From Folioceros fuciformis (taxonomy: Eukaryota), in assembly GCA_049999805.1 (NCBI GenBank), contig JBNGIO010006285.1, positions 277,248 through 297,247 of the forward strand: a stretch of 20,000 bases of DNA. Reading direction: 5' to 3'. The notes beneath the pieces are model-generated. The model made no database searches, was not told the origin of the DNA, and saw only the letters and a list, made by a program, of their open reading frames with translations. The position numbers and the translations under genes were made by a program. The first letter of the stretch is position 1. Each line of letters begins with the position of its first letter. Positions 1 to 20,000 of this stretch are shown here, piece by piece.

Positions 1-370
1 CAAACACGGTAATGAAGAAATTCCTGCAACCGAACATGAGCTGTGTTACTGTACAATTTCTAGCGGAAGCTGGTGAGGACGTCTTCCTCAAGCTTCACTA
101 GAAACCAATTTCTGGCGAATTCCTGAGGACCTCACGCTGAAACATGCCGTGACAAGGTTACCTGATCTGAAGTGCGAACATAATAAACCAAACCGCATTC
201 ATCGTTGTTAAAGACGCCGAAAGAGCCGCATATGTATGAACAAAAGCCGGGATGGCAATGTCTCTCATAGCTAACACAGCTAGGGCCAAGTTTATCACTG
301 AGAACCCGAAATACATTGATCCATTTGATCCTATCATGGCGCAGTCCAGGAAACATTCACAACTCGACAT
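1..370 (-). CDS. Putative 5' part of an unknown spliced membrane-protein gene (exon 370..162, intron 161..24, exon 23..<1)
   Basis: Two hydrophobic segments (YFGFSVINLALAVLAM, AALSASLTTMNAVWFIMFAL) lie in ORF 158..646. The ORF 'stop' falls inside a strong AG|GTAAC donor at 161. A TGCAG| acceptor at 24 restores phase (AG+G=R) and continues as hydrophobic NFFITVF. No family recognised. Confidence 0.3.
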
Positions 371-903
371 ACTGTCAGTACAGACTGGTTCACTCCTGAG
401 AGACACGAACGTGTGCGTAGAGGAAGAGGACGACAACGGTTTGTGAAGGATACAAACCGGACCTAAAGTGATTATGAAATGCAAACCCCGTGTCCTGTTC
501 CCTCTGACTACGATAGATAGCGGAGAGAATATAATGGACGCGCTCGCTTTGTTGTGTTTGCTGGCTTGAGAGAGCCTAACGTGTCCTTCAATCTGAAATG
601 TATACCATGAGAAAAATGATAAAACATTGGAAAACAGACAAGCCAAAAATCAACGCATTCAAACCGTGTTTCCATGCGTCTTATTCTTTTTTCGTGCGCG
701 GTTCGTTAGGAGTCGTGATTGTTTATGACCCCGATTTGTGCCAAGTCCTATGGTTATGAGGGGCCCTTCTTAGAATGAACCATGCCTTATAAACCATGAT
801 ATTTTGAGCGACACTTTTCACAAATAGATAGGAGAAGGGAAGGAAAGAGGATGGGACTAAGAATCCTGGTGATGGCTAATGCTGAAACGTTGTAGTTTAG
901 AGT

Positions 904-912
904 CTCCCCCTC
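904..912 (-). other. Polypurine tract of the Copia element
   Basis: GAGGGGGAG on the minus strand, shortly after the RNase H remnant; typical Copia PPT. Confidence 0.65.
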
Positions 913-1546
913 ACAATGGAGCTAAGGAAGTTTAGCGTCTATCTCCCAAGTGAGCTTCCTTGCTAATGAGTCCAATGTTGCGAACGTGCTTCTCATGCAA
1001 GGGCTTGAGCAAACCCTTACTCTAGAGGTCTGATGTGTTGTCCATGGTGTTCACGTACTTCACTAGGACTTGTTTGTTTGCTACTACCTAACCAAAGAAA
1101 TGATACTAAATTTCCAAGTGTTTTGTCTTGGTGTGGAGAATAGGGTTGTGGATCATGGCAATTGCGGATTGATTGTCGAAGAGCAGCTCGGTTGGTTCAT
1201 CACCAATGTCCTACAGGAACTATTGAATCCACATGATCTCTTTAGCTGCAAGTGAAGTGGCAGCATACTCTGTTTCGCTGCTTAACAGAACAAATTGTTT
1301 GCATCTTCCTCAAGATATGGATGAGTAATTGATAATCATGTAGTTTGAAGCTGTGGATTTCCTTGCATTTAGATCTCCTACTCAATCTGCATATGAGAAT
1401 GAGGTCAACTTGAGCTTGTTTCCTAGTGTTATCTGTTGACTAATCCCAAGGACTTCGTACCCTTCAAATAATGAAAAGTCACTTAACATAGGTTTAATCG
1501 ATACGTCCAAGATTAGACAAATATCTAGAAGCAATGTTCATGGGCC

Positions 1547-1559
1547 TAAGCTACGTCGG
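1547..1559. repeat. Left copy of LINE target-site duplication (partner at 4140..4152)
   Basis: TAAGCTACGTCGG here versus TAAGCTATGTTAG at 4140-4152. The three differences are C>T/G>A at CpG positions. Both copies encode the same Copia RT 'PD(I/V)A' segment on the minus strand. Confidence 0.75.
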
Positions 1560-4139
1560 CGATGTGTGAGAAGCTTTGGGCTAGGTAACAACTTTTGTAG
1601 ATGGATTGCAATGCTTTGTGAGGATGCAGGTGCAATGGTCTCTATGAGCGGATCCTTTACCGATAGGATTGATATCAAGAGGTCGGTACGTCAAGGATGC
1701 CCTCTAGCCCTGTTCATGTTCATCATTGTCACTGACTTTCTTCTGCAAGCAATTAAGTAGGACTTAAGGATTGAAGGCATTCAGAATCCCGACGACTCGC
1801 AGCTATGCATCTCGGCCTTTGCTGATGATACCCTGTTATTCTCATCTGCAGATACGACGTCCTTAACGGCCTTGCTCTCCAAGGTTCAGATTTTTGGTCA
1901 GCTATCAGGGTGCAATGTGAATTGGAGCAAGATTAGGATTATGTGCGTTAACATGCAGGAGGAGCCACCCGACTACATTAGACACATTATGCGGGTCCAG
2001 CCCAGCTCGTCACACAAGTACCTAGGCCTGTCATTCCAAGAAGAGGATGAGAATGCTGAGATTGGTAAATATGTCTGCCTCAGGTTCATTCAGAAAGCAA
2101 TCAGCTTATGCCTTTTGGATCTTAGTCTTGCAAGCAGAATCGTGGTCATAATCCATATTTTGACCACTTCCTTGTGGTACTATTTGTTCTTATGGGCCCC
2201 CAGGAAGGTGGACCTGATAAGGCTGCAACAGATTATTTCCAACTTCTTGTGGAGTAAGTCGAAGGAGCTGCTCTCCCCTTCCCATGAGATGGTGTGGCAT
2301 CATATAATACAGAGCAAGCGTTTGGGTGGGCTTGGACTAGTGGATCCCACTTGCAAAATGAAGATCCTTCATGCGCAATGGGTTCTGAAGGCAGCTGGCC
2401 CAATGGGCTACCCCCGGAAAAGTTGGTTAACCCAACACTTGCAGCAAACTCAAGCGGTGGTCCCGGGGTGGAGGTCTATTGACAACTTATTGGCGAATAG
2501 ACCCTTGCTTGACACTAGGGAGTGCTCTCCACTCTTTATCTCAATTTGGCGCAGCTTCTTGGAAGTTAAAACCTTCCTTAACTCAGTCCTGCCCAGGAAT
2601 AGGGATGATGCACTGGGCCTCCCTCTCCAAGGGTTCAAGGGGCTTTGGTCATAGGAATTCCGTTCGCGGGTGTGTCGATCCCAGATTTTTGTTTCCGCTG
2701 GTAGAAGAGGCATTGTGCAACTCGGGCACCTATGGAACCGAGTAGAAGAAGGATGGAAAACAGTGGAGAAGGTTCGAGAAGAGTTTGGGACTCCGGTTAG
2801 ACATGTGAGACTAATGCTTTCATGGCTACAAAAAGGGATGGCAGAAGAGGTGAAGCAAGCGTTATTACGGCAGGCCCAGGTGGGCATTCACACCCTATGG
2901 AAGATAGGCTGAGAGATTCCGACTAGAAGGGGGATGCAGCCATTCCAGACTTTGACAGGGCAGTGCTTGTATCATCTCTGACAGACGACAATGGGAATCT
3001 ATCCTACAGGACTTTGAGCACAGAGGGGCTTCTGGAGGTTATAGGCAGAGAAGAAGGTATGATCGGTGGAGTGTGCTTGAGGGGGATTACCACGCTTTAC
3101 AAGGCGAGGCGAGCGGGTCATTGGCTTACCCAAGAACAGCATGATAGCAAGAAACAACCTCCGTATCGAAGTCCTGTAAGATGTTGGTTTCGCTTGACGG
3201 AGAATTGGAAGTTAGTGATGAGACATGACCTCTATACGTGGCTTGTGACCTCTGGAAGTATACAGAAGAATGCGAGGTCACTCTTCAACTTTCCTTCGAG
3301 CACCATCTACCTTTGGTTGGTGCGCACACAAAAATCTCCTTAGCGAGGTCAACTGGCTCCTAGGTTGAGGCTCTCCTAGTGTCGCCAAAGGGCAACGATC
3401 AAACTCTTGTGGTCGACCATTGGGTTAGTCCCCAAGGTGCGGATTACCATCAAGTGTTTCTTCCAAGCTTGTTTGCCTAACGTGGATCGCCGGGATGGGT
3501 TGTTGGCGGCCACGGGGGAGGAGTAGTGCAGGCTTTGTACTGTTGACGCCCCGCACAAAAGCCAACATATCTTCTTCCAATGTGACTATGCCCAAGGTGT
3601 CTAGATTGAAGTTGGCAGATGGCTCCAAAGTCTTCTCCCGGAGAGAACCATTGTGGTTGCAAAGCAAACTGCCCTATTCGGGCTACATGCGCTGACAGGA
3701 GAGCCGCTCGTTCAGAAGCAATGGTGGGGAGTGGTGTGGTCTCTATCTCTTTGCGCCCTATGACAAAATTGGACAGCTATGGTCTATGGCGGGAGTAACC
3801 CGATATCAAGGAAAGCTCTGCTTTGGCATATCTGGGAACAAGTCCTAGTGATGGCGGAGAGCATTCGTACTTCCGCTCCCAACAAGTTCAGACGGACAGA
3901 GTGGAAGGCAGCTGGATTCCTCAGGCATAATGGCCAGTGAAATCACTCCTGCCCGTGGGAAAGGTAAGCCACACATTGACGAGAGATCTCTCGCTTGCAC
4001 GATAGATCAGATTTGTTCACCTCTGCAGTCTAGAAATTTGCAAATAGACTAACGCCTTACACAATTGCGCGTGCAAGCGCTGTACTCTGGATGTAGCTTG
4101 AGCTACGGATAATCAAATTTTTTTCTTCGCGAAAAAAAT
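1560..4139 (+). mobile_element. 5'-truncated, degenerate non-LTR retrotransposon (LINE, L1/Tx1-like ORF2: RT plus zf-RVT-like knuckle)
   Basis: One frame from 1566 to 2654 (single in-frame TAG at 1758) reads 'FG....FCRWIAML..SVRQGCPL...AFADDTL..FGQLSGCNVNWSK..KYLGL..FLW..GGLGL'. A Cys/His knuckle 'CRLC...SQHIFFQCDYAQ' lies at ~3525-3600. An A-tract at 4132-4138 is followed by the TSD. Confidence 0.9.
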
Positions 4140-4831
4140 TAAGCTATGTTAGGTCATGTCCAGATTATTAAGAGATATACAACATTGCCAACTACTTCAT
4201 TGTAAGGTACTTGCTGCATCTTCTTTACTTCCTCGAGAAGCGTTAGTTTTCTCCAAAAACTTTTTCTCGTGTAGCAATACAAGTTGATACTGGTTTGGTG
4301 TACTTTAGATTAAACCTATCCCATTGATTATTTACTTAGTGTTCTTGATGAATAAGTATGAATGATTTGTAGGGTATATCGATGTCATATTTAGTGGCCA
4401 TCTCCATGTGAAGGGAGGATACAATAGTAGAGTAGTCGTGGATACTAGGCATAGGTTAGGGGTTATCAATAAGAGTGGCGTGGTAGATAGATGTAAAGGG
4501 GGTGAGCTTGGTTAAAATGGACATTGTGAGAGAAGAGCGTGTGAGATTTCTTATGGTTTTATTAGCAATGTGGGAAAAAGCCAGACTTTCGAAGATGCAG
4601 AGATGAAAAATATTAGGTTTATGTCTACTCCAATGCTCAAAAGGAGTGGTATTAGGCAAGTCTTTTGTAGGAAGTCAGTTCTTCAAGTAATTAGAGGTAG
4701 ACAAACGCAGCTTCTGCATAGTAGCCTTTGGAGAGGTCGGCTAGCTTGAGCAAGAAGTAGGAGATTTCTTGCAAAAAGTGGTTAAGTCATTCGGCAAAGG
4801 GATTCTGAGAGGGGTACTGAACAATGAGTTG

Positions 4832-5098
4832 TTATTGACTACCTTTGGATTTGCAGAAAGTAGTGCTAGTACACTTACCCTTGTTGTCTGTTCGTAGGGC
4901 GGTAACCTGAAAACTGATGTGGTGTTCTATTGTAAGGATGAAGTCTTGGAACCATAAAAGGACTTCATCTTTGTGGCGTAAGAAATAGAAATGATAACAA
5001 TATAAGCTCCACTCATCTAGAAAATTGATGAAATATGATTGACTACCAATAGATATAATATTCATAGGGCCATACATATCAGAATGAACTATCTCCAA
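4832..5098 (-). pseudogene. Copia integrase core (rve) fragment
   Basis: HSDMYGP and RTDNKG motifs match Copia integrase H(S/T)DxxGP and RSDNGGE; flanked by stops and frameshifts. Confidence 0.85.
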
Positions 5099-6292
5099 AA
5101 GTCAAAGGGTATGAGCTGATGAAGAGTCGTTGAAGGGTGATTAATGTAACTTAGTGTATTTGAAGATTTCGCTAAAGACATCATGTGTACCTTGACTTTT
5201 ATTAGATCTCGACACCTGTTAGGGCTACCTAGTATGTTAAGGTACGTAGGATTCATGTCTTACTCTCTAGTGCTAAAGAAGTGATTCATTTGCTGAAATA
5301 TGTTGGAAGTAACCCCGTTAGGGTTAGCTTCTTATAAACGTTGCAGCTGTTAGGTGGTTTAATAGCTAATTATGAAAGGTCATGACTCTTGGAGAGTTTT
5401 TTTTGTATATAAGCACTTTATTATTCATAAATAAATATAACATGAGAACAACTTTGAGTATGTTAGATCCTCAAATGTTTCACAAAATAAGAGGGGTGCT
5501 ATCATCGAAGAGAGGATGTAGACTAGATAGTAAGGAGGTACATGTCGTTGAAAGGTAGACCATGTGTTAGGGTTGTCTGGCTAGGGTCCTTAGAGTGATT
5601 GATAATGTAGTGAATTATGATGTTGAGCATCATTCATGTCTTATGTGTATTGAAGCGTACTTTTGTCCAGTGCATAAATCTAGATGAGAACATTGTGTGC
5701 GCACTTATCCCTCTTGTTCTAGGCTGTGATTGTGTTAGATGTTCCAATGAGATTGGAAGTAGGCCCTGGCACTAGGAGTATACCATCAACAATCTCCATT
5801 AGATCATGCTCTTCTAACAAAGCTATGACCCTCGTGTTCCACACAACAAAATCAGTTTTGTTACACTAGTCTCAATTACAAAACTTAATATGGGTGGTAT
5901 TGACTACAATGAGGGCTAGCATACCCATGATTGATGGTGTCTTAGTTTTTCTCTTATAGTTCTTAAGAGAATCAAAATCTAACATACATGTCTTCTAAGG
6001 GCCATGGATGAGATGGTAATGATGATGGTCCTAAGTAGATTACACAACATGTTGGAGTGAGTGCATGTTGAGGTTTGAATCCGATGCGACACATCATTTC
6101 TCAATGACTTGCCTTGGAAATGAGGGTCGGCCCATAAGTGAGTAACATGGAGAGGTATGCTACCTAGCCATATTGTCCATTTCAAGATCATTGGTGCTGA
6201 TTGCCTTTCGTTTTGTGCAACGCCATGACGACTAATCCTGAAAGACTGGATGTAAGGCGCACTCGATGCACCAAACGGTTGAGAGCATTTAG

Positions 6293-6304
6293 GCTTTGAT
6301 ACCA
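6293..6304 (-). other. Primer-binding site complementary to initiator tRNA-Met
   Basis: TGGTATCAAAGC on the minus strand, one mismatch from canonical TGGTATCAGAGC, upstream of gag. Confidence 0.75.
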
Positions 6305-6681
6305 TAAAGCGAGGGCCAGTTCAAGGATTAGTATTTTATTAATAGAGTGCACGGGTATTTATACATATAGATTATTTGATTCCAACAACCTAACAGCAAT
6401 TTTGTAGTTTTTCTCTAATGGCCATAGTTTTAGATTAGGTTAGAACTCAAACTCTATTTAATGCGAAACGTGCCTTAAAAACACAACATCCACGAGCGCT
6501 AAGACACGTGATGCCGCAACACCTATCCCCAACGACAAGATTGTTGGTCTTGCCCTTTCGGTATTCTGTCTTTTGTATGTTGTCCATGAGTGCACAATGC
6601 ACCAACTCCTCCTCGTTGCATTTAGGCTATGAGTTTGAGTGTTTCTATAGCCAAGCTCTTAAGCGGATATCCATGACACCT

Positions 6682-6784
6682 CCTAGGCTTAGAAGTCATT
6701 TGATCTCAATAGAGACCTAGGCTTAGAANNNNNNNNNNTCTCAATAGAGACCTAGGCTTAGAAGTCATTTGATCTCAATAGAGA
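6682..6784. repeat. 34-bp tandem repeat (~3 copies) spanning a 10-N assembly gap (6729-6738)
   Basis: The unit CCTAGGCTTAGAAGTCATTTGATCTCAATAGAGA is identical on both sides of the Ns. Confidence 0.85.
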
Positions 6785-7701
6785 CTTTGAGAAAATACAT
6801 GTCTTATCGTGATTGTGTACAACCCAATTCCTAGCCATGTTCGTATTTGTGTCTTCTTCGCATGTATGTCAACTTGTGTGTCTTTAACTATGTCACCTTG
6901 AGTGTGGTTGTTGGTACCAAAAGACCATCAAAGGATACCATTCAAAAGGCAAGAAGTATTATTGAATAACTCCCATGGCATCATAGGTGGTTGTGTGGAT
7001 AAGTAGTTCATAGGAGTCACAACTCCTAACAGGCTCTTAGCATAAGTTGCAGTGCATGACAATGGACTATGGCTCTTCTTAGCTTTGTCTAATATGACTT
7101 CTATGATAGTGCTTTGTAAGGCATGATGAAGACAACAAAAGCTGGCTACCTTCTTTCACAACACAAACATACACAACTTTTGTTGGCTCCAGTGCTAGAA
7201 GGAACTATACCCCTTAGTAAAGAGAACATATTGTTGGAAGGGCAAACAAGCGAATGTTTACAAAACACTCTCTACTCTTTCATACGCGAACGACATTACT
7301 CAACTCCCTCGCTGCTTTTACTTGCTAAACTAAGCATCCTACATACTAGGCACACATAGGCCCTCATTCTCACATGTGCCTCTTGCTCACTTTGGGCTAG
7401 AGGTGCCCATGAGGGCTTGCACATAGGCACCTATAACCTGAAATTGGCTAGAGGCATCAACACAATCACGTACTCATCCCAAGTATCTTCAGCTGAGCTC
7501 TGAAATCTAATCAATGCTTCACACTATAGGCCCTAACATAGCTATGCCCAAGCTGTCACCCTCATGAGAGCCTCTATCTCATTTCGAGGCTGTAGTTTGC
7601 ATGTGAAATTTTCCGGCCACCTATAGCCCATGCAATCACTTATTCATCAAGGATCCTCAGCACTGCTTCAAAATATGCTCAATGCTTCATGAGACAACTC
7701 A

Positions 7702-7853
7702 AAGACACTGGGTTGCTAGCTTTGCATGTGAGCCCTTCTTCCCCTAAGTGTGTAAGAAGAATGGATCGTAAGGTAGTAAGACACTGGGTTGCTAGCTTTG
7801 CATGTGAGCCCTTCTTCCCCTAAGTGTGTAAGAAGAATGGATCGTAAGGTGGT
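7702..7853. repeat. 76-bp tandem duplication (2 copies)
   Basis: AAGACACTGGGTTGCTAGC...GGATCGTAAGGT starts at 7702 and 7778; one mismatch near the unit end. Confidence 0.9.
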
Positions 7854-8756
7854 AATCGGTGAACAAAAACAGTATAGGTGATAACAAGCCAAAGGTTGAT
7901 GATTCACACTACAACGTTGTTGATCATGAAAATTTTCGAGAAGAATCAATATTTCGAGTAGACAGGAAGGGGGCTAGAAATAAGTGCTGATGGCAGCTCT
8001 CTACATTGTGCACACCCTTAACACTGGTGGCTTTATACAAAACAACATTATGGGCTTATCTCTTGGGCTAAGTCACTTTTGTGATTTTTTCTGGATTTGC
8101 GCTTAGATGTTCTGGTTAAGATTTGGCTTTGATGATTATTTTCATAGTAGTACAGTAAAATAAAAATTTAATGTATGTGTTTCTTCCTAAACCCTAATTT
8201 GATACATACAATTATTTTATCAAAAGTTTTCACCCTGCGACAAAAGTCTCACTGACCTGCTGAGAACCTTGGAGAGAGTTAGCATCATAGCAATACTTGA
8301 AGCCTCTCCGTCTAAGAGGTTATGCTGCAAGTCAGGCCCTGATGGTGAAATAAGAACGACCTTATATATAGGCATCGTTGTCCAAGAGTGACTTTTGCAC
8401 TTACCACCGTCCGTTCACTCCGTGGGTGAGTATCATCTTGCTTCACTGATTTGCCCAGAATGATCCTGCTCCATTCCCTCGACGGATGGGCCAGCATACT
8501 TAGGTAACTGCGGATGGAAGCTCCAGCTGCATCGCCGTCCTGACCAATTTACATCCACGTCTATACAATTCAGACACAGACCAACCACAATGAGCTTTAT
8601 CTGGCAGCGAACGCGATCAAAATTTGTGATTGAATCACATGCCTGTGAGTGTCCTACAAAACAACCATGGACTTGAGATGAACATGGGGAACTAACCCAC
8701 AACACTTATGCTGTTGAAGCTGTTGGCGGTTCAAAAGATGCACATGTTGAAAGTTT

Positions 8757-8873
8757 TTAGTCAGCTTGAACGTCCTGCAACAACTTGAGAGTGTGTGGCA
8801 CAAGGTCCACGCCTTTGTTTCGACCAGAAGATCCCGTAACTTCACATATGTATCTTGGCTGTCACAATGTTTT
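8757..8873 (-). pseudogene. Frameshifted remnant of the proximal DYW domain downstream of the PPR stop
   Basis: Removing one A from the run at 8870-8873 gives GDQK-HCDSQDTYVKLRDLLVETK (consensus GDxxHPxSxxIYxKLxxL). The original frame then reads GVDLVPHTLKLLQDV (consensus GYVPDT..L.DV) up to TAA at 8757. No HxE or CxxC follows. Confidence 0.65.
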
Positions 8874-11800
8874 CTGATCCCCAACAACGAACACGTGTGC
8901 ATTTCCATTCAAGTCCATCCACCAGGTGCGTCCTGCTTCTTTCCAAGCTTGTGACTCTACTCTCATTTCCTGAACCTTCTTCGCCTCCTGTGGAATGTGA
9001 GCAGCGGCATAGATATTTGACATCAAAATGTATGCTGCAGCGTCACTTTTGTCCAGCTTCACAGCGAATTCAAATGCCTGCCTCCCAAGCTCCACATTGC
9101 CCCAATTTCGACAGGCAGCCAAAAGGCATTTCCACACTCCACTGTCAGGTTGGATAGGCATTGTCTTCACCATGTCCATTGCATCATGGATTCTGCCCGC
9201 ACGGCCAAGAAGATCAACCATGCAATTGTAGTGCTGCATCGTTGGGGTAATGCTATACTCCCTGCTCATGGCCAGAAACAATGCCTGGCCCCTGTCTACT
9301 AAACCACCGTGACTGCATGCGATTAGGAGACCAACAAATGTTACGTCGTTTGGCTGCAAGCCTTGCTTCTCCATCCTCCTGAACAGGTCAAAGACAATTT
9401 CACCCTCCCCTTGACGGGCGTATCCCCCTAGCAAGGCATTCCATGCTGTAATATCTTTACTGGGCACTCTGTCGAACACTTGCTGTGCATCCACCATGCT
9501 TGAACATTTGCCATACATGTCAATCAGACTGTTGGGTATAAATGAGCCAAGCTCTAAGCCAGCGTTCAAAATCTGGCCGTGAATCTCTCTCCCTTTCTCC
9601 AGACCGGCTACATTGCTGCACGCGTTGAGTGCACCAACATAGGTTCGCTCGTTAGGGATGACACCCTCCTGCTGCATTCGTGTGAACAACTGCAAAGCCT
9701 CTTCACCCTTGTCCATTTGAGCATACCCCAAGATCATGGAATTCCACGACACCACGTCACGCCTGGGCATTTTCTCAAACATCTCCCTGGCATCTTCCAG
9801 ACTGCCACACTTTGCATACGCATCGACAAGCATGTTCCCTACAAACAGATTTAACTCAAAGTCGTCCTTTCTGACATTCGCATGGATGGCTCTCACAGAT
9901 TCCAGACACAGCTTTCTAAGCTTTATCAAATCACCACCATTTCTCTCCGCTGACTCTACAATGGCAGTGCAAGCTTTAATTGCACCAACGTATGTTCGAT
10001 CATTTGGGACTACCCCTTCCTCTTGCATACGCGCATACAATTGCAAGGCCTCCTCACCCTTCGCCATCGTGGCATACCCCAAGACCATGGAGTTCCATGA
10101 CACCACAGAACGAACAGGCATATCTTCAAACACCTTCCTGGCATCCTCCAGGCTCCCACATTTCGAGTAAGCATCTACTAGCTTATTCGCCACAAACAGG
10201 TTCCCTTGAAAATTCCCCTTGACAACATTGGCATGGATGGCTCTCACAGTTTTGAGGTACTGTACTTTGTCCCCATCATCGTTGTTTCCTTCTCTGAGTT
10301 CTCCAATGGTACTGCAAGCTTTCAGTGCGCCAATATACGTTCTACTATTTGGCAACACACCATCCTCTTGCATCTGTGCATACAATCTTAGAGCCTCCTC
10401 ACCCTTCTCCATCTCAGCATACCCCAAGATCATTGCAGTCCATGACACCACATCCCGATCAGATAGATTCTCAAACACGTGCCTAGCATCCTCCAGACTC
10501 CCACACTTCGCATACGCATCCACAAGCATTGTCCCCAAGAATCTATCCAACGCCTTCCCCCCCTGTCCAATATCTGTATGGACGCTTCTGACAACCTCAA
10601 GGCATCGCTCTTTCCCACGTGTTCCATGACCAACATTTATGTCCACCAGTTCTCCGACAATACTACAAGCTTTGAGCACAAGAAGATGCGTCTGGTCGTT
10701 CGGAACCGTACCAACCTCCCTCATCTGTGTGTACAACTGCAAAGCCTCTTCAGACTTCTCCGTCTGGGAGTGCCCCGAGATGATGGAATTCCACGAACCA
10801 ACATCCCGACGAGGCATTTCGTCAAAGACCCGCCGAGCGTCCTCCAGGCTCCCACATCGTGAGTAAGCTTCTACAAGCATGTTCCCCACAATCACACTTG
10901 ATGAAACGTTCCCACCTCCAAAGTCTGTGTGTATGGCTCTCACAGTTTCCAAACACTGTCTGCTAACAGCTACCACGTCACACCCGTTTCTGTGCCCCCA
11001 TTCCGCAACGGCAATACAAGCCGTAAGGGCACCAACACAAGCTCGCTCATCGGGAAGCACACCTTCCAGCCGCATTTTCCTGAACATAAGCAAAGCATCT
11101 TCAGCCCTACCCATCTGAGCGCACCCAAATATCATGACAGTCCAGGAAACCACAGTACGAACAGGCATACGCTCGAAGACCAGTCTAGCATCCTCGAAGC
11201 TTCCACAGTTTGAATACGCATCCACCAACGTGTTTCCCACAAACACATTCCCCTCACAGTTCGACTTCCTCACATCCGCATGGATGGCTCTCACGGTGTC
11301 GAGGTATCGTCCTTTGGCAACACAGTCATCACCATCCACCGATCCTAAAACAGCAGTGCAAGCTTTGAGTGCAGCCACGTACACCCGATCGTTAGGAACC
11401 ACACCCTCCTGGTGCATGCGTTTATACAATTCCAAGGCCGCTTCGCCCTTTCCCATCTGTGCGTAACCCGAAATCATGGAGTTCCAAGAGACAACATCCC
11501 GGTGAGGCATCTCCTCAAACACCCTCCTAGCATTATCCAAGCTCCCACATTTCGCATAAGCGTTCACAAGCATGGTTCCCACATAGATATCAGTCTCCAA
11601 GCCATTCCTAACCACTTCTGCGTGAATATACTTGGCAGTACTCAGGTCCTGCAGGCCACTGCACGCCTTCAAGAGAAGGACAAAGGTATGTTGCCCTGGT
11701 TCCACCCCATGCTCCCGCATATCCTGATACAGCTTGAGAGCCTGCCTACCGTGCCCAGACTTGCTTTGCTGCGCTATCAATGTCGTCCAGGAACTTTCCC

Positions 11801-11987
11801 CTCCCTGGTGTCTGAACTGCCCATCACAACTGGAGCTACTTGTCCAGCTGCCCCTGCCAAACAGTGCGTCCTCCCGCAGAGCATTTGTCACACAATTCAG
11901 CTCCCTGACGCCCTCAGTGCTCGATCTAACGACTCCCACAGGACATTCTAATCCAAACAAGCCAGAGACTCTGTGAGAGGTGAGCAT
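8862..11987 (-). CDS. PLS-class pentatricopeptide repeat protein (24 motifs including five LL), E1-E2 plus truncated DYW:WW domain; organellar RNA editing specificity factor
   Basis: Intronless ORF with the first in-frame ATG at 11987 (the track starts at a TTG at 12038). Array P-L-S,(P-LL-S)x5,P-L-S,P2-L2-S2 (VVSWNSMI.GY, LKAC, YAKCGSLEDAR.VF, ACSHGGLV, HYNCMVDLLGRAG). E domains follow, and the protein ends in KEAGRTWWMD...HVFVVGD. Confidence 0.95.
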   Translation of the reverse strand: MLTSHRVSGLFGLECPVGVVRSSTEGVRELNCVTNALREDALFGRGSWTSSSSCDGQFRHQGGESSWTTLIAQQSKSGHGRQALKLYQDMREHGVEPGQHTFVLLLKACSGLQDLSTAKYIHAEVVRNGLETDIYVGTMLVNAYAKCGSLDNARRVFEEMPHRDVVSWNSMISGYAQMGKGEAALELYKRMHQEGVVPNDRVYVAALKACTAVLGSVDGDDCVAKGRYLDTVRAIHADVRKSNCEGNVFVGNTLVDAYSNCGSFEDARLVFERMPVRTVVSWTVMIFGCAQMGRAEDALLMFRKMRLEGVLPDERACVGALTACIAVAEWGHRNGCDVVAVSRQCLETVRAIHTDFGGGNVSSSVIVGNMLVEAYSRCGSLEDARRVFDEMPRRDVGSWNSIISGHSQTEKSEEALQLYTQMREVGTVPNDQTHLLVLKACSIVGELVDINVGHGTRGKERCLEVVRSVHTDIGQGGKALDRFLGTMLVDAYAKCGSLEDARHVFENLSDRDVVSWTAMILGYAEMEKGEEALRLYAQMQEDGVLPNSRTYIGALKACSTIGELREGNNDDGDKVQYLKTVRAIHANVVKGNFQGNLFVANKLVDAYSKCGSLEDARKVFEDMPVRSVVSWNSMVLGYATMAKGEEALQLYARMQEEGVVPNDRTYVGAIKACTAIVESAERNGGDLIKLRKLCLESVRAIHANVRKDDFELNLFVGNMLVDAYAKCGSLEDAREMFEKMPRRDVVSWNSMILGYAQMDKGEEALQLFTRMQQEGVIPNERTYVGALNACSNVAGLEKGREIHGQILNAGLELGSFIPNSLIDMYGKCSSMVDAQQVFDRVPSKDITAWNALLGGYARQGEGEIVFDLFRRMEKQGLQPNDVTFVGLLIACSHGGLVDRGQALFLAMSREYSITPTMQHYNCMVDLLGRAGRIHDAMDMVKTMPIQPDSGVWKCLLAACRNWGNVELGRQAFEFAVKLDKSDAAAYILMSNIYAAAHIPQEAKKVQEMRVESQAWKEAGRTWWMDLNGNAHVFVVGDQKTL

Positions 11988-12501
11988 ATCGCCACAAAGG
12001 TCAGACCAAGCCACATAGCAGCCCAAATCTACCGCCAAGGAACCGAATGCTTCAAAGATTTTTCAGTCACCTCCATCTCTTTTCAGTGTTGGCCGTAGCT
12101 CCAAATTCTCAGGGTCTCAAAAAAAAGATCGCTCCAGAATGCCTGCAGCATCACATGACAAGAGGACATGCAACGCATTATCCAACACTACATGACCTTG
12201 CTACCTACATAAGCACACCTAACCTACCATACATGAACTGACATATATTTATAATGCTCAAATAAATATAATAATATCAATCAATATTTTATTTAAAATT
12301 TTACAAGCTTCATGTAATCATTTTGGTGTAACCTTTATAAATTTTTTATTAGATATTTCAAACTCATATGTGTTATTCACATTTTTAAAAGAGACTCTAT
12401 GCATACTTTGATTAGAAGCTAGAAAGATCCAACTATCCACCTTCGTAGTATTACCATACCCTAATATTTTGCTCTAAAGTAGAAGCTTTACGTCTACTTA
12501 A

Positions 12502-13623
12502 TTACTTACTGCTATAATACTCTAATATTCTACCATAAAGTAACTGCTTTAATTCATGTTGGGACAAATCGGCTAATCCAAGAATCTCAAACTGGGACCA
12601 CACCTTGGACCAAGCATCTACACCACAAGTTTTTTGTTCTTGAGCTCCCACTTCAAAACAAGATTGTAACAAAACCTCTTTAGCTATGATGACTAAGTTG
12701 GAACTACAAGTCTTCAGTCCTTCCTTCTTTCCAAAAAAGGGATGTCTCAAAGCTTCTTCAGCTGTGATAGCTTTTTGCTTACTTTTCACAGAAAGAAGAT
12801 GGAGTAGTGATACAACCATAGGATCAGCTACACGACATCTATCTTTATGATATCTTGTAATGTTTGTCTTCAAATCTACTTCAACTGGATATGCACTTGA
12901 TAATATTTCCTCGAAGATGCTAGCTACATCCCAAATATCAATGAAGGAGTGTTTTAAAGACGTCTTTGGCACACCATAAGCTTGAGGTCCTAAGTGAAAA
13001 TCTAGTGATGGATGGAGATAGTACCCATTAGTTGGCATGGCTCGAGCTAACCCAAAATCACATATTTTAAGTAAACCGTTAGAGTTTACTAGTATGTTGC
13101 TGGACTTCAAATCTATGTGGACAACATTCATGGAATGCAAATACTGTACTCCTGAAAGGATTTGGTAGAGGAAATCTCGTTGTTCATCTGTAGATAAATT
13201 TGAGTCGTTTAGCACTGCAGAAAGATCATTAGCCATGAGTTCCGTCACTATGTACACATCATCAAAATCTTCGTTTGGTGGAAGAAATACATCTTTGAAT
13301 TGAACAACATGTTCGTGTCTTAATGATTGAAGTAAGGCTAGTTCTCGGAAGGTGCTTAGAATTATGTCTCGATTGTTGAAGAGATGTATGCGTTTGATGG
13401 CCACATTTTCTCCTCTTGTCAAGTCTTCAGCAGCATATACCATTCCGAAAGCTCCCTGACCTAAATATTTCATCACATGGTATGATGATTGAATACCATA
13501 ATTAGGAAAATAAGAACCAATTGGTTCGCTGTAATTACTCATCACCTTTCCAGTAACAAGCATATGATTAAGAAAGAGTGCAGTATATGCAATAACAATC
13601 GTCAGCATGTAAAAACCCTTCAT
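12502..13623 (-). CDS. Divergent intronless MAPK-like Ser/Thr protein kinase (group D/TDY-lineage-like) with hydrophobic N-terminus, lacking TxY and APE
   Basis: Intact 373-aa ORF with GQGAFG, VAIK, RE(L), 'LPP..DFDDVYIVTELM.NDL', 'FLYQIL', HIDLKSSN, KICDFGLAR, IDIW, 'ADP', 'TAEEALRHPFF' and a MAPK-type tail 'LKQLLYGRILEY'. Confidence 0.85.
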   Translation of the reverse strand: MKGFYMLTIVIAYTALFLNHMLVTGKVMSNYSEPIGSYFPNYGIQSSYHVMKYLGQGAFGMVYAAEDLTRGENVAIKRIHLFNNRDIILSTFRELALLQSLRHEHVVQFKDVFLPPNEDFDDVYIVTELMANDLSAVLNDSNLSTDEQRDFLYQILSGVQYLHSMNVVHIDLKSSNILVNSNGLLKICDFGLARAMPTNGYYLHPSLDFHLGPQAYGVPKTSLKHSFIDIWDVASIFEEILSSAYPVEVDLKTNITRYHKDRCRVADPMVVSLLHLLSVKSKQKAITAEEALRHPFFGKKEGLKTCSSNLVIIAKEVLLQSCFEVGAQEQKTCGVDAWSKVWSQFEILGLADLSQHELKQLLYGRILEYYSSK

Positions 13624-13668
13624 TTTAATAAGTGAACTTTAGACTTGAGAAGACAAAGTTTTAACTAG

Positions 13669-13677
13669 TTTTATATA
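13669..13677 (-). promoter_or_regulatory. Candidate TATA box of the kinase gene
   Basis: TATATAAAA on the minus strand, 46-54 nt upstream of the ATG at 13623. Confidence 0.4.
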
Positions 13678-13710
13678 AAGGGATTCAAGCGAGGTAGGAA
13701 ACGGCACAAT

Positions 13711-13757
13711 ACCAATGGGCCATATATACTATACACCAATGGTCCATATATAGTATA
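13711..13757. repeat. 24-bp-period direct repeat containing CCAAT and TATATA
   Basis: ACCAATGGGCCATATATACTATA at 13711 and ACCAATGGTCCATATATAGTATA at 13735. Confidence 0.7.
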
Positions 13758-13811
13758 TAATAATTCTTGAATTCGAATGATTTGTATAGGCAGGATTCAC
13801 GCGATTTCCAA

Positions 13812-13839
13812 CCCTAAACTCTAAACCATAAACCCTAAA
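13812..13839 (+). repeat. Short interstitial plant telomere-like tract (4 degenerate CCCTAAA units)
   Basis: CCCTAAA CTCTAAA CCATAAA CCCTAAA. Confidence 0.75.
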
Positions 13840-13917
13840 TTCGAGCCTGTGCCTTTATGGCTTCCTGCGCCTAAGGAGTCTAGCAGAAAAGCAGTTAAGT
13901 GGATTTGAGGACTGTCT

Positions 13918-16479
13918 TCAGTGCCGGTCCATACAAGAACAGAACCCGCCCAGGAATCGATGAACTCGATGTGCATCCCTCACTATGATCTCCCGCTTCT
14001 CAAGCCGTGACATGATCTTGGTGCTGCTATGGCAGTCATCACACATGCGAAGATTTTTGGTAACTAGTAAAGTGGCGCCGTCTGCTGTATGCAGCAGGCC
14101 GTACGCCAACGCCAGTTTCTCGGCATGTCCACAGAGGGCATTCTCCTTTACCTGCTCACACCATGCGTTCAACACTAGCTCTGTTTGTGGCACATGGCCT
14201 CCTTCCTCCTTCAGCCTCGCATTCACACTCCTCGACTTACACACAACGTCAGGCCTTCCTTCTCCTACTGTGAACTCATGCACCTCGTTCTTCACTTCGA
14301 TGCATGCCTTTGCAGGCTTCTTCATGGCACCTGCCGACTTTCTCAAGCTCTCTATCCTTTCTGCATCGTGCCACCTGCCTGCTCTGGCATAGATGCTCCC
14401 CAGTAGGATGTACGCACTCGCATCATCTGCTTCCAGTTCTACAAGACGGTCGAAGCATCGTCTTCCACGCTCTACATCACCGTAGCTTTTGCAAGCACTC
14501 AGCAAAGCTGTCCAGGCAACAACGTCGTTCACAAATAGCCTGCTTCGCACCATGTTTTCAGCCTCACGCAGTTTTCCTGACCGCCCAAGAAGATCAACCA
14601 TGCAGCTGTGGTGATAATCAGTAGGCACAATCCCGCCGCGTTCTACCATCATCTTGAAATAATGCTGGCCTTCGTGCACCAGGCCCGCGTGACTGCATGC
14701 CACAAAGAGACAGATGTAGGTAGTCTCATCGGGCTCGACACCTTGGTTGAGCATCTCCTCAAAACACCAGATTGCCATGAGGCCGTCGCCATGTTCTGCA
14801 TACCCATTCAGCATGGATGTCCACGTCACCAAATCTTTGCTGGCTAATCCGTCAAACACGATGCGAGCATTTTCCAGACTCCCACACTTCGCATACAAGT
14901 CCACAAGGCTGCTGCCCAGAGACATGTCAGAGTCAAGGCCCTGTTCACGAATCTGAGCATGCAGTTGCTTTCCCTGATGAAGGGCTCCCACTTCGGCACA
15001 CGCTTTCAGAAGGCACATATAAGTGACGTTGTCAGCCGGAGTGATGCCCTCCTGCTGCATACTTGCGTACAGAGCCAGGGCATCCTGACTGAGTCCATGC
15101 TGTGTGTATCCCGTGAGCATAGTATTCCATGTAACCACATCCCTAGCGGGCAATGTGTCAAAAACTCTGCGAGCATCTTGCAGGCTCCCACACTTGGAAT
15201 ACATGTCCACGAGACAATTGCCAATCACTGGATCGCTTGCCAGTCCACATTTCTGAATTTGATCATGGAGCTGCTTACCCTGCTCCAAATCTCTCACACT
15301 GGCACATGCTTGAAGCAGGCACACAAACAGGGCACGACCAGTTGGAGTCATGCCCTCACGTTGCATCTGTGCATACAGAGCCAGAGCTTCTCGACCCAGC
15401 CCATGCTGAATATATCCTGCTATCATGGCAGTCCATGTCACATCATCTCTCGTGTGCAATCGGCAGAAAACACTATGCGCCTCCTCCAAACTCCCACACT
15501 TTGCATACATGGTAACCAAGCTGTTGGCAACGAAGACATCAACCTGCAGTTCACTGGCCAAAATATGGGCATGCACCTCCTTCCCAGAAGTCAGATCCTT
15601 TGCGGTGGCACAAGCCTTCAGAACTGCCACAAATAATCGATTGTCAGGCTTCAATGTAGAGTCTCTCATTTGTCGATAGAGCTGTATAGCCTGCGTGGGC
15701 TGCCCATGTCGAACATGCGCCAGAATGATGGTGGCCCACATATACACGTTTGGAGAAGTCACTCTGGTGAACACATGTATTGCGTCCTTCAATTTCGCAT
15801 GAGCAGCATACATAGCAATCAGGTGGTTTGCTAAGAAGGCGTTACACTCGAACCCACTCTTGACAGCAAGGGCATGAAGGCGCCTGCCTAGAACCAGATC
15901 CTTGTGAGCGATGCACCTCTTGAGACAAGCATAGAAGAGGAGAGGGTGAATATAACATCCAAGGTGAAGCAGTAGGTCCAAGGATTGCAGGGCATCTTCC
16001 AGTTGTCCCTCCTCGCAGCACTTGCTCATAACTTCAAATACAGAATCAATTCCAGATGCACATCCATGCCCAGCATCCCACTTGGCTAGTTGAGCGTCAA
16101 CCCACCCAGGCTTTCGACTGCTGTCCAGCCAGAGGGGTTCTTTCGATCCCTTGTGCCTGAAGTCAGGATGGCGGGAACTTCTCTTATCCCGCCTGTTGTC
16201 CCACCACCGTGCAGGATCTTGAAAAAAGACATGCCACAACAGCTCCTGTCGCTCTTTAGTGTGCCGGACTTCTTCGACCCTCGAAGAAGCACCTTCAGGT
16301 GTCCCTACACATCCTGGTTTGGCCGATGCGTGTCCATTCACACACAAGCTGGCTGAGGTGCGCGCAGAACCCCATAAGGATCCAGATCTTGGCTGCACCC
16401 TGTCCAGCACCCGGCGATGCTGAATCCAAAAAAATTGCGGATCCGAAGATGCCGGATGCGAGAGCGGCCGCTCCAACAT
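13918..16479 (-). CDS. PLS-class PPR protein with N-terminal OSB-type PDF motif and C-terminal DYW:KP (DRH-type) domain; candidate U-to-C organellar RNA editing factor
   Basis: Intronless 853-aa ORF. Residues ~80-131 read 'LW..FF.DP.RWWDNR.DK....HPDF.HK...EPLWL...P.WV..QL'. About 15 PLS motifs and E1-E2 follow. 'KKPAKACIEV' replaces the PG box, then CGHAEKLA, KNLRMCDDCH, IIVRDAHRVHRF and CSC-M-DRH. Confidence 0.95.
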   Translation of the reverse strand: MLERPLSHPASSDPQFFWIQHRRVLDRVQPRSGSLWGSARTSASLCVNGHASAKPGCVGTPEGASSRVEEVRHTKERQELLWHVFFQDPARWWDNRRDKRSSRHPDFRHKGSKEPLWLDSSRKPGWVDAQLAKWDAGHGCASGIDSVFEVMSKCCEEGQLEDALQSLDLLLHLGCYIHPLLFYACLKRCIAHKDLVLGRRLHALAVKSGFECNAFLANHLIAMYAAHAKLKDAIHVFTRVTSPNVYMWATIILAHVRHGQPTQAIQLYRQMRDSTLKPDNRLFVAVLKACATAKDLTSGKEVHAHILASELQVDVFVANSLVTMYAKCGSLEEAHSVFCRLHTRDDVTWTAMIAGYIQHGLGREALALYAQMQREGMTPTGRALFVCLLQACASVRDLEQGKQLHDQIQKCGLASDPVIGNCLVDMYSKCGSLQDARRVFDTLPARDVVTWNTMLTGYTQHGLSQDALALYASMQQEGITPADNVTYMCLLKACAEVGALHQGKQLHAQIREQGLDSDMSLGSSLVDLYAKCGSLENARIVFDGLASKDLVTWTSMLNGYAEHGDGLMAIWCFEEMLNQGVEPDETTYICLFVACSHAGLVHEGQHYFKMMVERGGIVPTDYHHSCMVDLLGRSGKLREAENMVRSRLFVNDVVAWTALLSACKSYGDVERGRRCFDRLVELEADDASAYILLGSIYARAGRWHDAERIESLRKSAGAMKKPAKACIEVKNEVHEFTVGEGRPDVVCKSRSVNARLKEEGGHVPQTELVLNAWCEQVKENALCGHAEKLALAYGLLHTADGATLLVTKNLRMCDDCHSSTKIMSRLEKREIIVRDAHRVHRFLGGFCSCMDRH

Positions 16480-18012: not shown

Positions 18013-18134
18013 CTGCATGCACACGCAACCACATGCTCAGTGACATGTTTATAGCGACGATGTCTAAGACAGGAGAGAGTAGTATGCGCCAAGACTAGCA
18101 CAAATGTATGGTAAGGATGCGCATCTTCCAATAC

Positions 18135-19252
18135 CTGTACTGCTCGACCCCAACGTGAATAGGGGAGCCTTCGGCATCTCTGCACACCAGATTCTTTTGC
18201 AACTCCATCTTGTCCATGCCAAACATCGCAGACAATTTGGCAAACAAGTCGTCGTAGCTGGTGAAAAGTGCAAGATCAACCGTGCGACCCACCTCCTCGC
18301 TTTCCTTGAAAACCTTGCAGTGGGAGTAAGCATCGGATGAGGGATCTTTAGGCGCACTAGCACCACTTTGTTCCTTCATCCAAATCATGCTAGGAAAGTG
18401 GACTCCAGAGTCCACACTCCCACCCGGGAGCTGCTGATAATTGGCGTCCTCCCTTCCACTGCTGTCAGAGTAAAATCGCTGCAACCCTTCCCTAGTGTCA
18501 CCGTGGTACCCATCAGAGCCCCTACTGCTGGAACGGCGCTTCCGGCCCAAATCTTCACTGAAATGCAGATGAGAGTGGTCATCAGACGAGCTGCCACCCG
18601 AATGCTGCTGCTGTTGTTGCTGTTGCTGACGTTGATGTTGGTGCTGAGGCTTGGGCATGGTGGGGGTGACATTCTTGTCCGCTGGGTCAATAGCCTGACC
18701 GAAGAGCAGAAAAGGAGCAGTCTTGGGCACCGAGCTTGCCCCACAGCTAGGAGCCCCGTTGCTGGAGGGGTCACTGTTGTGCGAGACACTCCCCATCCCA
18801 ATCCAACCCGATGCCTTGCTGGTCACCCCCGACCAGTCCTGGTGCGAACTTGTATTCCTATTAGGCAGTGGCAAGCCGGCCACTTGCTCCTGGCGGTAGG
18901 CATTATCTAGGTGCATCCCTGTTCGACCTTTATTAGGACGGAAAGCTGACAATGCGAGCCCACAGATTCTTTCTTGCCTGGCTCCCTGCATGCCTGCAGG
19001 AACATCTTCCACAAGACCATGCCAAGGAGACATCTGCCTGAGCATATCGTTGGCCAGAGCTGCCATGGGCATCGCCATCATAGGAGTTTGACCTTGGACT
19101 TGGAGGGGAAGATCTGAAGGTTGCGAAGCTCGAAGTTTCTTCTTGGACAGGGAGAAGGGAGGGAGTTGCATGGGCAGGGTCGATACTACCTCCACCTGCC
19201 AGGGACTAACTCTGCTCACGCCTTGCAACAGGTCGGGTTCGTCCCAGCTCAC
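18135..19252 (-). CDS. ARF: Class C auxin response factor (ARF10/16/17-like), penultimate exon (end of DBD, middle region, PB1)
   Basis: VSWDEPDLLQGVSRVSPWQVE, PPFS..KKKLR, PAGMQGARQ (miR160 site), FLLFGQ (B3-repression-domain-like), poly-Q, HCKVF.ESEEVGRTVDL. Bounded by an AG acceptor (19253) and a GT donor (18134). Confidence 0.93.
18975..18995 (-). promoter_or_regulatory. miR160 target site in ARF mRNA
   Basis: The plus strand reads TGCCTGGCTCCCTGCATGCCT versus miR160 UGCCUGGCUCCCUGUAUGCCA (19/21; the internal difference gives a G:U pair). It lies in the AGMQGAR-coding segment. Confidence 0.92.
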
Positions 19253-19415
19253 CTGTACCCATCCATCATCATCCCGCCCAATCATCAGGCAACAGTGGCC
19301 AACACTGAGGAAGGTGCACTCACTACCCAGAATAGGGTTAAGCTTGCACACAACAGCAACAGCAACAGGAATCGAAACCGAAACAACCACAAGCTGCACG
19401 AAGCAAGAAACGGAC

Positions 19416-20000
19416 CTGGAGAACCCTCCAAGGAGACTTGGGCCAGAGATGCGGATCCGCTGGCTGCACCGCCTGGATAGTACCCATGAACCAGCTGATC
19501 CTGGACGAGTCTTCCGTCTCGAACGCCATCTTGAAACGCATCCCAGCGTACCAGGCATGATCCAAAGCTGCCTTCACCACATGAGCCTTGACACAGAATT
19601 CCGCAGTGCTGGCCCGGGGATAGTACACCACCTCGAACTGGTGCCCAGCCACAGCCAAAGACGCCGCTTCCATGACTGACTTGGCAGTGACCCGTGCCCG
19701 GTTCCGCGCGAAGCTGCTGCTACTGCTGCTGCTGTTGCTGCTGGAGAGAGCATTCTCTCCGAGAAATTCCGCCATGCCATTGTTGGCGCCGCCGTCGTTG
19801 CCCTTCACCTCCCACCTCGAGGGCCGGTGGGACGGCGGCACAGAAGAGGAAGACGAGGAGTGCCAGGAGGAGGAATCCCCGGGCCCGCTCGTCCCCCGCA
19901 TAGACCTGCGTACACCGACACAGAGCTCCCCGGTGGCGCTCCGCAGGAAGACGATGGCGTCCCCGGCCACCAGCTTCTTCTGGTTCACAAAGTTGCTCCA
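19416..20000 (-). CDS. ARF: Class C auxin response factor, exon with end of B3 domain and Auxin_resp region (gene continues beyond the window)
   Basis: WSNFVNQKKLVAGDAIVFLRS..GELCVGVRR, FEVVYYPRASTAEFCV, GMRFKMAFETEDSSRISWFMGTI, WPKSPWRVLQ, then a GT donor at 19415 (163-nt intron, phase 0). Confidence 0.95.

Follow-up and report, generated by a model that had tools for sequence, protein, structure and literature searches.

A very diverged, intronless MAPK derivative with a hydrophobic N-terminal extension in Folioceros fuciformis

A kinase-like reading frame between two PPR genes

We analyzed a 20,000-nucleotide stretch of the Folioceros fuciformis genome (GenBank assembly GCA_049999805.1, contig JBNGIO010006285.1, positions 277,248 to 297,247 of the forward strand), referred to below as the window. 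It contains an open reading frame (ORF) for a kinase-like protein derived from mitogen-activated protein kinases (MAPKs). The ORF occupies positions 12502-13623 on the minus strand, has no introns and consists of 373 codons and a stop codon. It is located between two PPR genes identified with Pfam, and all three are on one strand. The PPR gene at 8862-12038 (minus) encodes an E motif, and that at 13918-16479 (minus) encodes E and DYW domains. The kinase-like gene and its flanks form an AT-rich island at 12100-13850, with a GC content of 0.24-0.39. The GC content is at least 0.49 on both sides of the island and 0.50-0.52 in the PPR genes. The gene is most safely described as a lineage-restricted MAPK derivative that appears uncoupled from its cascade and carries a probably young hydrophobic N-terminal extension.

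The N-terminus of the ORF product reads MKG-FYMLTIVIAYTALFL-NHMLVTG|KV. Its hydrophobic leader is encoded by codons 1-25 (13549-13623, minus), is composed of MKG, F4-L18 and NHMLVTG, and reads MKGFYMLTIVIAYTALFLNHMLVTG. A first-pass annotation of the window had described a leader with a basic n-region, a 15-residue hydrophobic core and a V-x-G cleavage-type site, and translation, hydropathy and inspection confirm all three. The Kyte-Doolittle mean is 2.11 over the 15 residues F4-L18 and reaches 1.72 in the top 19-residue window. K2 forms the basic n-region, and V23 and G25 fit the -3 and -1 positions, as judged by inspection and the hydropathy scale only. Judged by simple classical criteria, residues 1-25 resemble a signal peptide. 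N19 and H20 break the hydrophobic run; interrupted in this way, it would suit a signal-peptide core better than a stable membrane span of 20 residues. In an AlphaFold2 model the leader is a lone helix (residues 2-24) with a predicted local distance difference test score (pLDDT) of 60-68.

An in-frame TAA at 13639-13641 (minus) shuts the frame five codons upstream of the ATG at 13623, which is therefore the first ATG of the frame. In its first 84 bases the only further ATGs are those of M6, M21 and M28, and all are in frame. The putative TATA box TATATAAAA is located at 13669-13677 (minus), 46-54 nt upstream of ATG 13623. No ATG is found between this motif and ATG 13623, which has an A at position -3.

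Two repeats are also found in the region upstream of the gene. Degenerate plant telomere-type repeats (AAACCCT-like, family D8) occupy 13803-13842, about 180-220 nt upstream of the kinase ATG and just past the stop codon of the PPR gene, and may be a promoter element similar to a telo box. A 24-nt tandem duplication with 88% identity and TATATA motifs is located at 13711-13758.

A MAPK fold with a remodelled activation segment

MAPKs are cytosolic and nuclear relay enzymes, and their hallmark is the TxY switch in the activation loop. A protein kinase domain is found at residues 48-297 of the ORF product (12733-13482, minus), which match Pfam PF00069 (Pkinase) at profile positions 1-263 of 263 (E = 1.3e-42). 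A word-indexed search gave 886 matches, with identities of 31-48% and scores up to 165 bits among the matches listed. The 120 matches listed of these 886 are spread over plants, fungi, animals and protists, and all that have a specific family name are MAPKs or the related kinase NLK. ERK1 and ERK2 lead a sequence search of the PDB (5e-40). The AlphaFold2 model, built with 125 sequences, has a mean pLDDT of 78.4 and a predicted template-modelling (TM) score of 0.79, and pLDDT exceeds 90 in the core. ERK2 and Fus3 are the top Foldseek matches of this model (E = 3.5e-20, TM score 0.68). Feature-based matches of the whole protein in the ESM Atlas belong to generic or mixed CMGC clusters (CDK-type, MAPK, GSK3). 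The first-pass annotation had called the protein a MAPK derivative, and Pfam, the sequence relatives, the alignment, the PDB match and Foldseek all back that assignment.

Close relatives were not found. An exhaustive HMMER search of 1.84 billion cluster representatives returned 254 matches at E ≤ 1e-30. The rows at the top are long proteins that match in several stretches, and the best rows of MAPK length (about 370 residues) score about 162 bits and cover residues ~42-243 only. No full-length close homologue is present among the ~15 billion proteins covered by the word search, HMMER and exact look-up. The derived C-terminal half is common to no protein found in this collection, and for this reason we consider the gene to be without a close relative. 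Five sequences were looked up exactly, the full ORF, the forms starting at M6, M21 and M28 and the PPR neighbor, and none of them (0 of 5) is in the collection; the proteome of the host plant is likewise absent from it.

The nucleotide-binding and catalytic elements are preserved. In an alignment with MAPKs (A1), the protein keeps GQGAFG, VAIK, the αC Glu, HID-LKSSN, DFG, DIW in helix F and ITAEEALRHPFF. The residues present include the Gly loop, Lys77, Glu94, Asp171, Lys173, Asn176 and DFG. The C-terminal helix (residues 355-372; 12508-12561, minus; pLDDT ~92) aligns with the C-terminal extension of MAPKs. It reads ...LKQLLYGRILEYY, versus ...IRELIFQEILEYH in P0144, a MAPK with a TDY motif. 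About 28 additional residues precede this last helix.

The activation segment and P+1 loop (residues 200-228; 12940-13026, minus) are remodelled. The TxY motif, two Arg residues and APE are gone, and pLDDT drops to 52-54. The activation loop reads PTNGYYLHPSLDFHLGPQAYGVPK, and in a second alignment (A2) the two phospho-acceptors are changed by T208D and Y210H. TRWYRAPE is replaced by GPQAYGVPK. HRD has become HID (R170I), and further changes are R214Q, R217G, A218V, E220K and, at the Arg partner of the APE Glu, R285A. At the MAPK insert, gaps in the protein span about 40 residues in A1. The common-docking region reads GKKEGLKTCSS; E316 is kept and P317 is lost in A2, and the two alignments place this segment differently.

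Conserved columns support this division. We defined 84 columns with at least 90% conservation across 124 MAPKs; four of these columns fall in gaps of the protein. The N-lobe and catalytic core keep 39 of 48. The activation segment keeps 2 of 10, the C-lobe 9 of 18, the C-terminal extension 1 of 3 and the N-terminus 0 of 1. The losses make one module, composed of the phospho-acceptors, the HRD Arg, the loop Arg residues (R214 and R217), APE and the Arg that pairs with the APE Glu. The roles assigned to these residues, such as this pairing, are general knowledge of kinase structure. The loss of the MAPKK phosphorylation motif that had been noted earlier is evident in the alignments and conserved columns, and it extends to most of the remaining apparatus for activation by phosphorylation.

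Lys77, Asp171, Asn176 and the DFG Asp are all present, so by motif the protein is not a classical dead pseudokinase. Because the elements that couple MAPKs to the cascade have been lost together, it is most likely a MAPKK-independent kinase or an ATP-binding pseudokinase and not a cascade member, as judged from the sequence. The protein resembles non-RD kinases and pseudokinases in having lost the HRD Arg together with the loop phospho-acceptors, which fits kinases with no need for phosphorylation of the activation loop. It differs from dead pseudokinases in retaining the four residues above. It may show a route by which a cascade kinase acquires other roles, as a constitutive non-RD kinase, an ATP-binding scaffold or a decoy.

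Departures from TxY occur in other plant MAPKs. In the available parts of two sources, such MAPK paralogues include those with MEY, TEM, TQM and other motifs and tobacco MPK4L (PMC4363184, PMC4892734). In those portions of the sources the changes in the variant-loop MAPKs affect single residues of TxY, whereas here replacement or deletion extends to the entire activation segment and to the MAPK insert.

Plant TDY-type (group D) MAPKs offer a further close comparison. The kinase core is common to both. TDY MAPKs such as P0144 also resemble the protein in the N-terminal YF..YG..SY spacing and in the C-terminal helix ending in ILEY. Unlike them, the protein has no TDY, APE, MAPK insert or long C-terminal tail, has HID in place of HRD and is encoded by an intronless gene.

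Origin of the gene and its leader

The match to MAPKs is contained in a single frame. In tblastn searches with four MAPKs, residues 15-360 of P0144 align to about 13512-12514, and no frameshift or intron-sized gap relative to these MAPKs is found. Remnants of TxY and APE hidden by a frameshift or an intron were considered and rejected; tblastn gave only the single in-frame match, those in other frames having E values of at least 0.49. In the portion of a plant MAPK survey available, genes of group D contain 7-14 introns, and only seven MAPK genes are intronless (PMC4363184). The gene is an intronless copy from an intron-bearing family, as a retrogene is. Since plant members of the family nearly always carry introns, a retrocopy would be the simplest origin.

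The evidence on the MAPK subfamily points two ways. In a quick tree the protein is on the TDY side of the starred split, supported by a Shimodaira-Hasegawa-like approximate likelihood ratio test value of 95. Among the top 15 matches of the N-terminal segment, 10 are TDY kinases, though TDY rows account for only 52 of the 268 homologues. Of all sequences in the tree set, a chytrid Hog1 shows the highest identity (39% over 298 columns). The terminal branch leading to the protein is 3.45 changes per column.

None of the MAPKs aligned in A1 has a counterpart of residues 1-27. Met28, encoded by the in-frame ATG at 13540-13542 (minus), is 11 residues ahead of the YF-PNYG (YF..YG) motif. The equivalent distance in P0144 is 14 residues, which places Met28 at about the usual MAPK start. 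We screened 268 homologues for N-terminal hydrophobicity. The first 40 residues are as hydrophobic as those of the ORF product in only one, a 2327-residue protein with an obvious signal-like N-terminus, and a leader-like hydrophobic start is absent from the other 267 distant homologues. The 19-residue hydropathy threshold is passed by 2 of 268. This largely agrees with the earlier statement that MAPKs have no signal peptides. An ESM Atlas search with residues 1-40 alone gave zero usable matches.

We estimated how often such a leader would arise by chance from 5000 random stop-free 26-codon extensions drawn per base composition. Equally hydrophobic extensions make up 4.1% of those with the upstream intergenic composition, 4.7% with the downstream composition, 2.2% with that of the remainder of the ORF and 11.5% with that of the leader itself. 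Random stretches of 26 codons are stop-free in 11-19% of draws. The DNA of the first 27 codons is 40% T, and T-rich DNA by itself tends toward hydrophobic codons. We also examined both strands of AT-rich non-genic regions in the window (1-1800, 3500-8800, 12039-12501 and 13624-13917). Two of the 82 ATG-started open 27-codon stretches in them reach the hydrophobicity of the leader, and these two overlap each other. The leader is unusual at a level of about 1 in 25 to 1 in 50 per gene, and across a genome such leaders are not rare. It is moderately beyond chance expectation. If the leader is not used, it carries a caution that an ORF read from its first ATG in T-rich DNA readily yields signal-peptide look-alikes.

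Four N-x-S/T sequons (NYS30, NDS139, NLS142 and NIT254) had been noted as a further secretory feature, and all are present in the ORF. Shuffling the sequence 5000 times gave 2.02 ± 1.32 sequons, with four or more at P = 0.131. The homologues contain fewer sequons on average (1.31 per 373 residues), and the higher count in the protein is in line with its own residue composition. The count is not above composition expectation, so the sequons fail as an argument for secretion. The first-pass annotation is supported in part: it stands with respect to the MAPK derivation and the cascade loss, which the alignments and the fold support, and to the signal-like leader; its use of the sequons does not.

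Possible explanations and neighboring features

The explanation that we favor, to which we give about an even chance, is a lineage-restricted, intronless and very diverged MAPK copy that is uncoupled from the cascade and has a leader whose secretory role is unproven. In the simplest view, a MAP kinase would have been retrocopied into the AT-rich gap between the two PPR genes. Selection would have held the copy open as a protein and retained the nucleotide-binding and catalytic core. The cascade couplings would have been shed together, including TxY, the HRD Arg (giving the non-RD motif HID), the loop Arg, the APE Glu with its Arg partner and the MAPK insert. Residues 1-27 would be a young extension recruited from upstream T-rich DNA. 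Translation started at Met28, directly or by leaky scanning, would give a soluble protein of the ordinary cytosolic kind. With its losses concentrated in a single module, its kinase core confidently predicted and its frame open, the protein has probably been under selection.

Several observations weigh against this explanation. The GC content at third codon positions (GC3) is 0.31, similar to AT-rich non-genic DNA, and is 0.54 in both neighboring PPR genes. The observed-to-expected CpG ratio is 0.44, compared with 0.43-0.53 in AT-rich intergenic DNA and about 0.6 in the neighboring genes. Both values would be compatible with a silent copy. A 61-nt imperfect duplication straddles the stop codon of the kinase. 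Neither a poly(A) remnant nor target-site duplications are present among the 10 direct-repeat families at 11900-14000, both of which an old retrocopy may have shed. An approximately unbiased (AU) test does not reject a clade with TGY (Hog1/p38-like) kinases (p = 0.712), and the constrained tree is better by 5.07 log-likelihood units. With this clade allowed, a firm group D (TDY) origin is not claimed, nor therefore a strictly plant one. Finally, given the TATA-like motif, the lack of an intervening ATG and the A at position -3, a TATA-driven mRNA would contain the leader and place it first.

The duplication at the stop codon is marked by a 35-nt direct repeat (12456-12490 and 12517-12551), the copies of which have 77% identity and a spacing of 61 nt. 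The last kinase residues are encoded by one of these copies, and the other is in the 3' flank. CpG depletion was considered as a mark of silencing and dropped, since the differences in the CpG ratio given above are too small to decide.

The strongest alternative, that of the first-pass annotation, is that translation starts at ATG 13623 and that the leader is used in the secretory pathway, either as an endoplasmic reticulum (ER) signal peptide cleaved after VTG25 or as a type II signal anchor. The MAPK-derived protein, as a kinase or a pseudokinase, would then be located in the ER lumen or the apoplast, or attached to a membrane on its lumenal side. We consider it possible and clearly the less likely case. 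The basic K2, the hydropathy of the 15-residue core and the residues at -3 and -1 favor it, as do the predicted lone helix, chance estimates of 2-5%, the occurrence of such a start in only one of the MAPK-like homologues and the position of ATG 13623 as the first ATG after the TATA-like motif. The loss of TxY, the MAPK insert and the P+1 loop would fit a life away from cytosolic partners, and the charge balance (+2 before the core and net 0 after it) would orient the kinase domain to the lumen.

Other evidence argues against a secretory role. No close homologue or orthologue that could show the leader to be conserved is found among the ~15 billion proteins, and sequons are not enriched. The T-rich leader codons are hydrophobic by default, open extensions of this length arise in 11-19% of random draws, and Met28 is at about the usual start. 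The mature part past the leader contains five cysteines, an odd number, and shows no apparent sign of adaptation to an oxidising compartment. Ordinary MAPKs can also carry signal peptides called by predictors. In the available part of a buckwheat (Fagopyrum) survey, two of 16 MAPKs have such a call and no follow-up is reported (PMC8815160), so calls of this type, taken alone, mean little.

A fuller version of this alternative, in which upstream non-coding DNA provided the retrocopy with a de novo signal peptide and the copy lost its cascade contacts and became a lumenal or apoplastic kinase or ATP-binding pseudokinase, is slightly less likely again. If the leader is used, the gene would be one of few documented cases in which a signaling fold of the cytosol acquired a signal peptide out of non-coding sequence and a MAPK relative functions beyond the cytosol. 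We know of no MAPK-derived secretory protein. A literature search on MAPK signal peptides and on TxY-less MAPK-like pseudokinases, which was non-exhaustive and did not ask the question directly, brought up no secreted MAPK derivative. Fam20C and VLK are secretory-pathway kinases of other kinase-like families, and we are aware of no MAPK-family member in such a role. Their likeness to the protein, a kinase fold behind a signal peptide, is relevant only if the leader is real. PTEN-α/β offers an analogy of mechanism only. In the part of the report available, initiation at an upstream site extends a cytosolic enzyme at its N-terminus, and this longer form is secreted (PMC9170693); the enzyme is an animal phosphatase, and that portion of the report describes a different kind of extension.

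Some of the same features would be expected of an unexpressed retro-pseudogene that is dead or dying with its frame still open, in which the leader and the altered motifs have no function. Its composition is like that of AT-rich non-genic DNA (GC 0.37, with the GC3 and CpG values above), its branch is extremely long, many residues invariant in the family are gone, the duplication covers the stop codon, and neither the full ORF nor any of its shorter forms is in the protein collection. However, about 7% stop codons are expected from base composition at 37% GC, by simple arithmetic, and after such divergence 373 open codons are very unlikely at this frequency without selection. The longest stop-to-stop frame wholly within the AT-rich region 3300-8800 is 113 codons. 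There is no frameshift relative to MAPKs. The losses fall in one functional module and most conserved core columns are kept, which uniform decay would not produce, and the confident kinase core predicted by AlphaFold2 also argues against decay. We consider this explanation improbable.

Acquisition of the island with a donor MAPK-like gene from another eukaryote, such as an AT-rich fungus, or from a large DNA virus would account for the sharp compositional boundaries, the low GC3, the absence of introns, the chytrid Hog1 as the sequence of highest identity in the tree set and the clade with fungal-type TGY kinases that the AU test permits, but it is very improbable, as no donor stands out among the matches listed, with plants, fungi, animals and protists alike at 31-48% identity, other non-genic DNA in the window is about equally AT-rich, the terminal motifs lean to TDY, a viral_contigs scan with the protein gave three pattern matches, one tblastn-positive stretch and no locus, and neither convincing terminal inverted repeats nor target duplications were found around the island.

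The neighboring genes are of separate interest. Among named species, the lycophyte Diphasiastrum complanatum provides the best relatives of the DYW protein (35-50% identity); ferns and gymnosperms come next, and identity reaches 64% in unnamed assemblies. By eye, the PPR-E-DYW protein (13918-16479) has KPAKACIEV in place of the PG box usual in DYW domains, and it also has HAE...CDDCH and an end reading ...CSCMDRH. From these motifs it looks like a DYW:KP type. According to the available portions of two reports, this type is linked to U-to-C RNA editing in hornworts and some lycophytes and ferns (PMC11845758, PMC4915041).

The remaining features are located away from the island. Short open frames at 4456-5101 (minus) resemble, by eye, a decayed retrotransposon integrase. 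Pfam searches of ORF fragments in 4456-6320 gave only a sub-threshold match to a retroviral SH3-like domain (E = 0.0086, 16.4 bits, cut-off 27). A run of 10 N at 6729-6738 is probably an assembly gap. Exons of an auxin response factor (ARF) are located at 18095-20000 (minus) and run off the end of the window. They match the ARF ancillary domain (5.4e-23) and the end of a B3 domain, with a weak match to AUX/IAA.

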